Part shown: in pieces, positions 13,780 to 24,027 of the stretch
Layout of the letters: every line of letters starts with the position of its first letter
How positions within the stretch are numbered: the stretch's first letter is position 1
DNA from: Candidatus Omnitrophota bacterium
Lineage (GTDB): Bacteria > Omnitrophota > Gorgyraeia > 2-01-FULL-45-10
NCBI GenBank assembly: GCA_030695905.1
Contig: JAUYOL010000001.1
Location: forward strand, 66,023-130,022
Length of the DNA: 64,000 nt
Direction: 5' to 3'
Notes under the pieces: model-generated
Told to the model about the DNA's origin: nothing
Seen by the model: only the letters and a program-made list of their open reading frames with translations
The model's database searches: none
Position numbers and translations under genes: made by a program

Positions 13780-13871
13780 AATCTGTTAGAAATAAAAAAA
13801 CTTGCTTTTGCCCATTGTAAATTACTATCTTATGATATATACTCTAATTAAGAGAAAAGAAAGAAATCTAT

Positions 13872-13958
13872 ATCGATAAAGGCAAACCTAGCGAAAGCTA
13901 TGGGACGCAAAACTAAAGAACCTAAAGCCGTAAGGCCATGGTAGTCAGTCGCCGAAAA
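13872..13958 (+). ncRNA. candidate c-di-GMP-I (GEMM) riboswitch
   Basis: GGCAAACC ... tagcGAAAgcta (GNRA hairpin) ... GGGACGCAAA ... gccGTAAggc ... GGTAGTCAGTCGCC. This closely follows the Vc2-type GEMM-I consensus. Sits in the 5' leader of ORF 14029. Confidence 0.55.
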
Positions 13959-14028
13959 TAGGTTAATAGTCTATTGGCGGTGTACCATGTGCAAACGGCT
14001 TAATTTTTTATCATGGGGGGTGATTTAG

Positions 14029-14349: not shown

Positions 14350-14382
14350 TCCAGAGCCTTTTTACAATTATGTGGTATAATA

Positions 14383-14414
14383 CTCCCCGTTAGAATTAAC
14401 ACGGGGAGTTTTTT
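14383..14414 (+). terminator. hairpin + T6, terminator of ORF 14029 overlapping extended -10 promoter (tgtggTATAAT at 14371-14381)
   Basis: ctccccg-N12-cggggag followed by tttttt immediately before the ATG at 14415. The right arm doubles as a GGGGAG Shine-Dalgarno. Confidence 0.4.
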
Positions 14415-15655: not shown

Positions 15656-15994
15656 ATGATGACTCTAAAAATGGCAATAATAGCGATGATGATAAGTTCT
15701 TCAGCGGTACCTTTTAACGGTTCAGATGTAAATAAGGCGATTGAGCATCCGAGGATTTCCGAAGTAATGGATTATTCAGTACCAAAAGATACCAGCGCCC
15801 TCGATGTTAAGGATATAGCGGATGCTCAATATGCGCCTGTTGATCAGGCCGCACCGGTAGAAGAGGCCGTTTCTGCCAGGCAGACTGTCAACGGAGACAA
15901 GACATATGAACAATGCATGAGAGAAGAGTTTGAACGCATATATGAAGAAATAAACAGGATGCTTAATGAGGTGGTTGATCGTTGTGACAAGTAG
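15656..15994 (+). CDS. hypothetical protein with N-terminal hydrophobic segment
   Basis: ORF with a strong ribosome-binding site. No recognisable domain. Confidence 0.45.
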   Translation: MMTLKMAIIAMMISSSAVPFNGSDVNKAIEHPRISEVMDYSVPKDTSALDVKDIADAQYAPVDQAAPVEEAVSARQTVNGDKTYEQCMREEFERIYEEINRMLNEVVDRCDK

Positions 15995-17665: not shown

Positions 17666-17757
17666 GGAGAGGTCGCCTAGTGGTCTATGGCGGCGGTTTG
17701 CTAAACCGCTATATGGGTAATACCGTATCGAGAGTTCAAATCTCTCCCTCTCCGCCA
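17666..17757 (+). tRNA. tRNA-Ser (anticodon GCT)
   Basis: Long variable arm. Loop ttGCTaa. T-loop TTCAAAT. 3' CCA. Confidence 0.85.
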
Positions 17758-22009: not shown

Positions 22010-23191
22010 ATGCAAGATAAGATAATTCAGTTAAGAAAAGGTAAAAAAGGCAGGCTCAAACCCGGCCATCCCTGGATATTCAAGGGCCAAATACTTAAGC
22101 TGACCTCATCCGTGAGGCCCGGCGATATCGTCACGGTAATAAGCAGCGAAGATGACTTTATAGGCCGCGGCTATTATAACCCCGCTTCCGACATATCTAT
22201 ACGACTGCTAACATTTAACGAAGAGCCCGTAGACAGCGCCCTTATACACAGAAAAATAAAAGAAGCGGTAGAAAAGAGGGAATTTCTAAAAGAAATAACG
22301 AACGCAAAGAGGCTTGTGTTCAGTGAGGCAGACGCGATCCCCGGACTGATAGTCGATCTTTATAATGATACGCTTGTCATCCAAATCTATACGCTTGGGA
22401 TGGAAAAACTGAGAGAAGAGGCCTTGAGCGCTCTTAAGGACGTGGTAGGTCCAAAATATATATATGAGAAAAGTGATTCACCTTTCAGGAGGATAGAAAA
22501 ATTGAAATCGGTTAAATGCTGGGTGGGCACTCCGGGGCCCGCCGAAGTCGAAATCGACGAAGCCAAGGTGAAGTTTATAGTCGATATAGAAAAAGGGCAC
22601 AAGACGGGTTTTTATCTGGACCAGAGGCGGTCAAGGCTCGCTTTGCGCGCGATAGCAAAAGGTAAAAAAGTCCTGGACCTATTCTGTTATACCGGCGGGT
22701 TTTCCATAAATGCCGCTCTGGGCGGAGCAAAAAAGGTTCTCGGCATAGACGTAAAGTCCGACTGGCTTGATTTAGCCCGCAGGAACGCCGCTCTAAACAA
22801 TGTTTCCGGCGCGATCGACCTGCAGGCCAGCGACGCTTTCAACGCTATTAAAAACATCTGTAATTCCGGTGAAAAATTTGATATCATAGTAGTTGATCCT
22901 CCATCATTCTTAAGGAGCAAAAAGGATCTTATAACCGCAGCTAAAGGCTACAAGGAGATAAATACGCTTGCGTTCAAAAGCCTGGCTGACGACGGGGTCT
23001 TGTGCACGTTCTCCTGTTCGCACAATATGCCGAATAAGATGTTTTCCGATATAGTAAAAGACGCGGCGGCCTGCGGCGGGAAAAAATTCGTTATATTAAA
23101 AAGGTGCAGGCAGGACAAGGATCACCCGATATCCAGAGAAATTCCGGAAACAGAATACTTAAAAGGATATTTCTTAAAGACGGTGCAATGA
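22010..23191 (+). CDS. rlmI: 23S rRNA m5C methyltransferase, RlmI-like (PUA + class I SAM MTase)
   Basis: N-terminal GHPWIFKGQI PUA-like domain. SAM motif VLDLFCYTGGFS. Confidence 0.75.
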   Translation: MQDKIIQLRKGKKGRLKPGHPWIFKGQILKLTSSVRPGDIVTVISSEDDFIGRGYYNPASDISIRLLTFNEEPVDSALIHRKIKEAVEKREFLKEITNAKRLVFSEADAIPGLIVDLYNDTLVIQIYTLGMEKLREEALSALKDVVGPKYIYEKSDSPFRRIEKLKSVKCWVGTPGPAEVEIDEAKVKFIVDIEKGHKTGFYLDQRRSRLALRAIAKGKKVLDLFCYTGGFSINAALGGAKKVLGIDVKSDWLDLARRNAALNNVSGAIDLQASDAFNAIKNICNSGEKFDIIVVDPPSFLRSKKDLITAAKGYKEINTLAFKSLADDGVLCTFSCSHNMPNKMFSDIVKDAAACGGKKFVILKRCRQDKDHPISREIPETEYLKGYFLKTVQ

Positions 23192-24027
23192 GCGAAGTAA
23201 AAGATAAAAAACGAAATAGCGGTGTCAGTAACGCGTTCAAGCTGTCTATGGTCGTGTTGCTTTTCGCGCTTACATTCATAAGACTTGCCTGCGCGCTGTA
23301 TTTTCCATCCATAGAAATAATTTCAGATAAAATTCTCCTGGCGATAACATTATTTATAGTTGTATATTTATGGGTAAAAGAAGTAAGGGATTACCATCGC
23401 CTGCTTAGGCTGCACAAAAATTTGCAGATTACCAACGAACAATTAAAGGCTTCCGAAATCGACACCATAGCCGCGCTGATAAAAGCCGAAGAAGAAAAAG
23501 ACGGGTATACCCGCGGCCACTCCGATAGAGTGACTAAAATTTCACTGGCGATAGCCCAAGAGATGAATCTTGATAACGAGAAGAAGAGACTTATCGAACG
23601 CGCGGGCATACTGCACGATATAGGCAAGATAGGGATATGTGATTCGATACTGTGTAAAAAAGAAAAGCTGACAGACGAAGAATGGCTCGTTATAAAGAGC
23701 CATCCGGATAAGGGCGACAAGATTCTGGAGCCGTTAAAATTTCTGCCCACCGAAAGGGATATAATCTTAAGCCACCACGAACGCTATGACGGGAAAGGCT
23801 ATCCGCGCGGGCTTAAAGGCAGCCAGATACGCATAGAGGCGCTCATATTAGCGGTAGCCGACGCTTTTGACGCGATGAATTCCGCGCGTTCTTATAGACA
23901 GCCGCTTAGCAAAGAAGTTATAACGTCAGAATTGGAAAAATCGCGGGGCACACAACATTCGGCGGAAGTTGTTGACTATTTTTTAAGACTGCTTAAGAAA
24001 AGGCCGGAACTCTGGGAGAGGCAATGA
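23188..24027 (+). CDS. membrane-anchored HD-GYP phosphodiesterase
   Basis: HD motif ILHDIGKIG. HHERYDGKGYP. ATGA overlap with rlmI. Confidence 0.8.
   Translation: MSEVKDKKRNSGVSNAFKLSMVVLLFALTFIRLACALYFPSIEIISDKILLAITLFIVVYLWVKEVRDYHRLLRLHKNLQITNEQLKASEIDTIAALIKAEEEKDGYTRGHSDRVTKISLAIAQEMNLDNEKKRLIERAGILHDIGKIGICDSILCKKEKLTDEEWLVIKSHPDKGDKILEPLKFLPTERDIILSHHERYDGKGYPRGLKGSQIRIEALILAVADAFDAMNSARSYRQPLSKEVITSELEKSRGTQHSAEVVDYFLRLLKKRPELWERQ

Follow-up and report, generated by a model that had tools for sequence, protein, structure and literature searches.

A gene for a small protein of 106 residues lies within a 64-kb stretch of DNA from a Candidatus Omnitrophota bacterium, the whole of which was analysed and is referred to below as the window. 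The gene is preceded at a distance of 72 nt by a candidate c-di-GMP-I (GEMM-I) riboswitch, and the unit formed by the two is flanked immediately by a saccharopine-dehydrogenase-family gene on one side and a stand-alone receiver on the other. The features discussed here are collected in Table 1.

Table 1. Features of the riboswitch unit and of its surroundings, with positions counted from the first letter of the window and residue equivalences given in Vc2 numbering
Feature	Position	Strand	Basis or remark
PAS-PAS-GGDEF-HD-GYP protein, 682 aa	5082-7130	-	Pfam, motifs
Putative sigma-70 promoter	13815-13843	+	consensus scan
-35 TTGTAA	13815-13820	+	17-nt spacer to -10
-10 TATACT	13838-13843	+	
P1 5' strand AAUCUAU.UCG	13865-13875	+	MFE folds; 7-lineage pair counts
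Vc2 C13-G94	C13874-G13954		
Vc2 G14-C93 (top of P1)	G13875-C13953		
Vc2 5-nt linker	13876-13880		
Vc2 G20	G13881		
GGCAAACC	13881	+	listed aptamer element
Vc2 G21-C46	G13882-C13908		P1b pair
Vc2 C22-G45	C13883-G13907		P1b pair
GAAA-capped hairpin CCTAGCGAAAGCTATGG	13887-13903	+	GAAA loop 13893-13896
GGGACGCAAA	13902	+	listed aptamer element
Vc2 C44	C13906		
Vc2 A47	A13909		
P2	13911-13950	+	
Tetraloop-receptor-like CCUAAA/CAUGG in P2	13921-13926 and 13937-13941	+	
Intrinsic-terminator-like element	13925-14011	+	folding; interrupted hairpin + U-tract
GUAA-capped hairpin P2b GCCGTAAGGC (GTAA in DNA)	13927-13936	+	
GGTAGTCAGTCGCC	13940-13953	+	listed aptamer element
Vc2 G83	G13944		
Vc2 C92	C13952		
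P1 3' strand CGA..AUAGGUU	13953-13964	+	folds
Ribosome-binding site GGGGGGUGAU	14015-14024	+	sequence; ends 4 nt before ATG 14029
Regulated gene, 106 aa	14029-14349	+	ORF list; own ribosome-binding site
Extended -10 TGGTATAAT for receiver gene	14373-14381	+	conserved in 7/7 lineages
Hairpin CTCCCCG/CGGGGAG	14383-14408, T6 at 14409-14414	+	directly before receiver ATG 14415
HD-GYP protein	23104-24027		Pfam
MshEN+PilZ protein, 277 aa	24024-24857	+	Pfam; 4-nt overlap with HD-GYP gene

The original prediction had placed the element beside a locus with many c-di-GMP enzymes and receivers. Such enzymes and receivers are indeed encoded in the window, but the c-di-GMP genes lie 7-10 kb away and do not adjoin the riboswitch. 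On the upstream side, the PAS-PAS-GGDEF-HD-GYP protein has an intact GGEEF motif, an RxxD I-site and an HD-GYP motif, and the residue at its Hypr-specificity position is the canonical Asp; judging from these motifs, both synthesis and breakdown of c-di-GMP may be among its activities, and the ligand could plausibly be supplied or consumed by it. Between 7.5 and 14.8 kb there are two histidine kinases and three receivers. On the downstream side, a gene for an HD-GYP protein overlaps one for a protein with MshEN and PilZ, which are two different c-di-GMP-binding modules. Given the GGDEF, HD-GYP and MshEN+PilZ genes in the window, the organism plausibly makes, degrades and senses c-di-GMP. It should also be noted that a second small ORF (15656-15994, forward strand, 112 aa) follows the cupin gene and that its product has a hydrophobic N-terminus in the window copy. 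Each of the six related lineages described below has a syntenic ORF after its cupin gene (copies in L002-L012), the lengths ranging over 93-126 aa, and this second small ORF has neither a Pfam match nor a preceding riboswitch.

When the window was scanned against Rfam 15 with cmscan, RF01051 (c-di-GMP-I) matched positions 13871-13956 of the forward strand with 69.3 bits (gathering score 35, E 1.7e-11). The alignment spans model positions 1-87 of 87 at about twice the gathering score, and in a permissive scan (E <= 1) canonical RF01051 was the top-scoring model of clan CL00126. At the same cutoff, the window held no match to c-di-GMP-II (RF01786) and no second riboswitch in the Rfam 15 scan. 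A tandem arrangement was also considered and was rejected because there is a single riboswitch match in the window. Elsewhere, an 89-nt long-arm tRNA at 17666-17754 is overlapped by sub-threshold matches to RF04351 (47.1 bits, GA 68, reverse strand) and RF02223 (24.2 bits, GA 70), which are most likely artefacts.

The class assignment had been proposed from five sequence elements, all of which were found in the order claimed (Table 1), and an Rfam search and the formation of P1 had been named as checks on it. The score is well above the gathering score, the match covers the full length of the model, P1 closes when 13860-13970 is folded without constraints (MFE), and the pocket residues are kept, all of which bear out the assignment. 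Every sequence- and structure-level hallmark of the class that was tested is present, with ligand binding and regulation standing as predictions. We regard 13871-13956 as an almost certain c-di-GMP-I aptamer. The functional unit is longer than the 13872-13958 first proposed, since it extends from 13865, the first position of P1, to about 14011, where the expression platform ends.

In the unconstrained MFE fold, 13865-13871 pairs with 13958-13964 and 13873-13875 with 13953-13955, so that P1 encloses both aptamer hairpins. The result is a three-helix junction made up of P1, a GNRA-capped hairpin and a receptor-bearing hairpin. A47 of Vc2 makes the intercalation contact with the ligand, and an adenine is found at the equivalent position here. 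The equivalences were established from the Rfam model alignment together with the Vc2 numbering (PMC6140456, PMC11705072). In Vc2, G20 provides the Hoogsteen contact and C92 is the Watson-Crick partner of the ligand (PMC6140456), while the structure around them includes the pairs G14-C93, C13-G94, G21-C46 and C22-G45, an interhelix pair C44-G83 and a contact between the GAAA tetraloop and its receptor (PMC11705072). Counterparts of all of these residues are listed in Table 1. In the window, P2 is closed beside the pocket by an A.C pair (C13950), at a position where five of the seven lineages have U; this mismatch could result in weaker ligand binding.

To place the element among its relatives, homologues of the small protein were collected. 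When 1.84 billion representatives were searched exhaustively with HMMER, 12 homologous proteins were obtained; a profile search of 5.8 billion proteins returned 10, which amounts to about 14 for both searches together. Protein-pattern scans of genome and metagenome contig collections, based on a two-sequence alignment, did not find relatives, and exact-pattern DNA scans of genome and metagenome contig collections with the conserved P2 stretch gave no match. Exact look-ups of five homologues plus the first yielded 12 related metagenome loci (designated by L numbers), which collapse to six distinct lineages, or seven with the window. The gene order of the window recurs at all of these loci: the saccharopine-dehydrogenase-family gene is separated by roughly 250 nt of intergenic DNA from the small gene, after which come a stand-alone receiver of 130 aa and, on the opposite strand, a Cupin_2 regulator. 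All 12 have an above-threshold RF01051 match (50.8-63 bits) between the Sacchrp_dh gene and the small gene. In the seven lineages found, the small orphan gene is always preceded by an RF01051 riboswitch.

When the seven aptamers were aligned, 94.4% of the structure cells were paired, as opposed to 18-36% with the partners slid. The seven outer pairs of P1 and its two inner C-G/G-C pairs are kept throughout, one pair showing a double-sided change. Three pairs in all show such changes, and the observed covariation score was reached by 30 of 500 shuffles; this support is thin because the seven sequences are close. It was also observed that an insertion of about 38 nt lengthens the P2b hairpin of one lineage (L003:363-425, GGCCCGCCUGCC...GGGCAGGCC), whose aptamer still scores 50.8 bits for RF01051 and whose terminator is kept.

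We then considered how the aptamer might be coupled to the small gene. Folding of the leader yields a hairpin at 13925-14001 (AAGCCGU...ACGGCUU, -32.7 kcal/mol) followed by AAUUUUUU, with the terminator tail AAUUUUUUAU at 14002-14011. The 5' arm of this hairpin consists of P2b, the P2 3' strand, C92 and the P1 3' strand of the aptamer. Its innermost stem pairs AAUAGG of the P1 3' strand with UCUAUU (13970-13975), a downstream copy that resembles the P1 5' strand. Given that the terminator reuses the 3' half of the aptamer, the two folds are mutually exclusive, and a transcriptional ON switch is predicted from this exclusivity. When the aptamer and P1 were enforced, the downstream region could still form no more than a hairpin of -6.4 kcal/mol, set apart from the U-tract. 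By free energy, the terminator fold (-43.1 kcal/mol) is favoured over the aptamer-enforced fold (-27.2 kcal/mol) by about 16 kcal/mol, and the control of the switch must therefore be kinetic. Kinetic control is the usual mode of transcriptional riboswitches. It should be noted that UUAA lies between the last G-C pair and the U-tract and that the stem is interrupted; owing to this interruption, a consensus terminator scan did not call the riboswitch terminator.

The same platform is used in five of the seven lineages, namely the window, L001, L002, L003 and L007. Their hairpins range from -30 to -51 kcal/mol and are followed by 6-8 U, and the arms are altered yet remain complementary (for example, CAUGGUA/UACCAUG vs CAUGGC/GCCAUG). 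All seven lineages have (G)AUCUA further downstream as a copy of the P1 5' strand. The remaining two lineages, L004 (934-991) and L010 (3946-4000), have shorter leaders of 55-58 nt without a U-tract, and thus must act translationally or by a mechanism other than an intrinsic terminator. In the full-leader MFE fold of L010, the P2 5' strand CUCUCAG pairs with the Shine-Dalgarno region, a layout that would amount to a translational platform in place of a transcriptional one with the same ON logic. In L004, CUCUCAG is complementary to CUGAGGG of the Shine-Dalgarno region, yet the MFE fold pairs that region with another upstream strand; from the complementarity, we infer a translational ON platform through pairing of P2 with the Shine-Dalgarno region as a candidate arrangement for this lineage.

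These two lineages raise the question of whether the window copy is a true c-di-GMP-I riboswitch that works mainly or only by sequestering the ribosome-binding site, or that is an OFF switch. A related pairing is seen in the window itself: in the ligand-free full-leader MFE fold, the P2 5' strand (13914-13923) is paired with GGGGGGUGAU, the ribosome-binding site. Furthermore, Vc2 is described as an OFF switch in one source (bioRxiv 10.1101/617340) and as a translational OFF switch in another (PMC9262584), so that the direction cannot be assumed from the class alone. However, the strong hairpin, the run of U and the complementary changes in its arms recur in the five lineages noted above, and ON logic likewise results when the P2 5' strand sequesters the ribosome-binding site. 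Both the terminator layout and the ribosome-binding-site layout therefore imply the same direction. As nothing terminator-like is left once the aptamer is enforced, an OFF design is without structural basis. We thus consider a mainly translational or an OFF mode improbable for the window copy, and a transcriptional ON switch, as modelled from the folds, the probable one. Pairing of the ribosome-binding site with the P2 5' strand would then reinforce the OFF state in read-through RNA.

For the transcriptional ON switch, the following course of events is proposed. Transcription would begin at the conserved promoter (-10 at 13838-13843), and c-di-GMP would bind the nascent three-helix aptamer, contacting G13881, A13909 and C13952, with the GAAA tetraloop docked on the P2 receptor. 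Ligand binding would lock P1 (13865-13875 with 13953-13964) and make the aptamer's 3' half unavailable to the strand further downstream at 13976-14001, so that the terminator at 13925-14001 would be blocked, the polymerase would pass the U-tract and the gene would be on. If the ligand is absent, the downstream strand would invade P1 and P2 and the terminator would form; in any RNA that is read through in this state, the freed P2 5' strand could pair with the ribosome-binding site. Taken as a whole, it is likely that the element is a GEMM-I ON switch in which c-di-GMP binding blocks the terminator and allows a small exported or membrane-anchored protein to be expressed.

The identity of the ligand rests on position 20. 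An A at this position is what permits recognition of 3',3'-cGAMP, while the affinity of Vc2 with G20 lies in the pM range for c-di-GMP and at only ~10 uM for cGAMP (PMC6140456). Since the window has G13881 at the position of Vc2 G20, c-di-GMP rather than 3',3'-cGAMP is predicted as its ligand. L004, L007 and L010 likewise have G. The case for a GEMM-Ib type of element, or for a bispecific RNA, comes from the other three lineages (L001:1296-1382, L002:989-1075 and L003:308-432), which have A at the G20 position (GAUAAUAGCUAACC vs GAUAAAGGCAAACC), the substitution associated with cGAMP recognition (PMC6140456). In the window, however, the A that characterizes GEMM-Ib is not found, the G20 form of Vc2 binds cGAMP only weakly as given above (PMC6140456), and the GGDEF enzyme encoded there has the canonical Asp and not the Hypr Ser. 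With G20 present and the GGDEF domain canonical, cGAMP was rejected as the ligand of the window copy, and a cGAMP-sensing or bispecific RNA at this locus is very unlikely.

The A20 orthologues may nevertheless reflect a shift to cGAMP or a dual specificity in the sister lineages. More speculatively, and in our estimation rather doubtfully, the family could be a second-messenger output module peculiar to a single Omnitrophota clade, in which orthologous aptamers have toggled between G20 and A20, different cyclic dinucleotides (c-di-GMP in some lineages, 3',3'-cGAMP or both in others) turn on the same protein, and terminator and ribosome-binding-site platforms are interchangeable. Finally, that the c-di-GMP-predicted element of the window owes its resemblance to chance, or has decayed into a relic without a regulatory role, is scarcely credible: the A.C mismatch beside the pocket and the unconventional terminator could be read in this way, but the E value of 1.7e-11, the position in a 5' leader with promoter and ribosome-binding site, and the retention of element and platform in seven lineages whose proteins have diverged argue against it.

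Across the lineages, identity between the regulated proteins is down to 23-51%. The protein of the window is recorded at NCBI as MDP3790497.1 (hypothetical, Candidatus Omnitrophota bacterium), where it is called from Met4 and has 103 aa; ATG 14029 is the likelier start, because the MRS[MI]AK N-terminus is conserved in the relatives and a ribosome-binding site lies at 14015-14024. The N-terminus is strongly hydrophobic, with a Kyte-Doolittle value of ~2.2 over residues 5-27, and the AlphaFold model has a helix at residues 2-24. An N-terminus of this kind would suit either a signal peptide or a membrane anchor. Hence, the small secreted protein of the original prediction is upheld as to its size and its hydrophobic N-terminus, while secretion is only partly shown and a membrane anchor would fit as well. 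The protein was also examined as a possible lipoprotein; this was rejected because a lipobox is absent and bulky residues stand before the conserved Cys of the relatives. Beyond the N-terminus, the protein is acidic and contains the conserved core DSYCE..SIINLENC..ANKI..ENG.I.IVRD. No match to the protein was found in Pfam or NCBIfam, nor among PDB sequences at E <= 10. With a mean pLDDT of 52.9 and a pTM of 0.23, the AlphaFold model is unreliable, and what it builds is limited to the N-terminal helix and one beta-hairpin. Most likely, the riboswitch would switch on a small, predicted exported protein at high c-di-GMP. As to what this protein does, a cell-envelope or surface factor of the high-c-di-GMP (attached) state is our guess.

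The boundaries of the regulated unit can be drawn from the flanking signals. The putative promoter upstream of the aptamer is present in all seven lineages as TTGTAA/TTGAAT and (TG)TATACT with equal spacing, and transcription would start near 13850. Between the predicted start and P1 lies a purine-rich leader, AGAGAAnAGAAAG (13845-13864), which is conserved in all seven lineages and pairs with the U-rich terminator tail in some folds. No terminator was found between the end of the upstream gene (13779) and the riboswitch, so that read-through transcripts may also feed it. On the other side, the receiver gene has its own extended -10, from which it follows that the riboswitch most likely controls the small gene only; the small gene is thus most likely monocistronic. 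The hairpin before the receiver occurs only in the window and L001, and was missed by the consensus terminator scan owing to its long loop, folding having brought it to light instead. Its 3' arm CGGGGAG holds the ribosome-binding site of the receiver, so that terminator, promoter and ribosome-binding site overlap within 42 nt.

As an element, the riboswitch is a further member of a thoroughly known class that routine Rfam-based annotation would flag; it adds nothing to riboswitch mechanism, and its value is local. The literature searched contained no discussion of riboswitches in Omnitrophota, the two words occurring together only in one unrelated work. The riboswitch provides a handle on c-di-GMP signalling in this uncultivated phylum, and it points to an orphan small protein, predicted to be exported, as something that the cell likely produces when c-di-GMP is high. 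Furthermore, the G20/A20 polymorphism among the orthologues constitutes a small natural experiment on the switching of ligand specificity. A by-product, if the modelled folds hold, would be a case of two expression platforms serving one logic for the same gene.

Among known systems, Vc2 of Vibrio cholerae (PDB 3irw) is the structural reference, and the three-helix aptamer is common to both RNAs. The window copy shares with it the equivalents of G20, A47 and C92, the pairs G21-C46 and C22-G45, a G14-C93-like top of P1 with the 5-nt linker, the GAAA tetraloop with its receptor and possibly the C44-G83 interhelix pair. The two differ at the P2-closing pair, which is A-U in Vc2 and A.C in the window, where P2b is in addition short and GUAA-capped. 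They also differ in host phylum and regulated gene, and in direction: Vc2 is an OFF switch according to PMC9262584 and bioRxiv 10.1101/617340, whereas the window copy has an aptamer-overlapping terminator and is predicted to be ON.

The CD1980.2 family of Clostridioides difficile offers class-I c-di-GMP riboswitches that likewise stand before small membrane-associated proteins (bioRxiv 10.64898/2026.06.10.731418). These are OFF switches, in which c-di-GMP represses, and are linked to sporulation, unlike the predicted ON switch described here; the likeness, compared by description, is confined to the protein being small and membrane-associated. With respect to architecture, a close parallel is found in the GEMM-Ib riboswitch of pilM (Gm0970) in Geobacter metallireducens, a transcriptional ON switch in which aptamer and terminator are mutually exclusive (PMC9262584). 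The pilM element senses 3',3'-cGAMP through A20, in contrast to the G20 and predicted c-di-GMP specificity of the window copy, and the regulated genes are unrelated; what the two are predicted to have in common is the ON architecture of exclusive aptamer and terminator.
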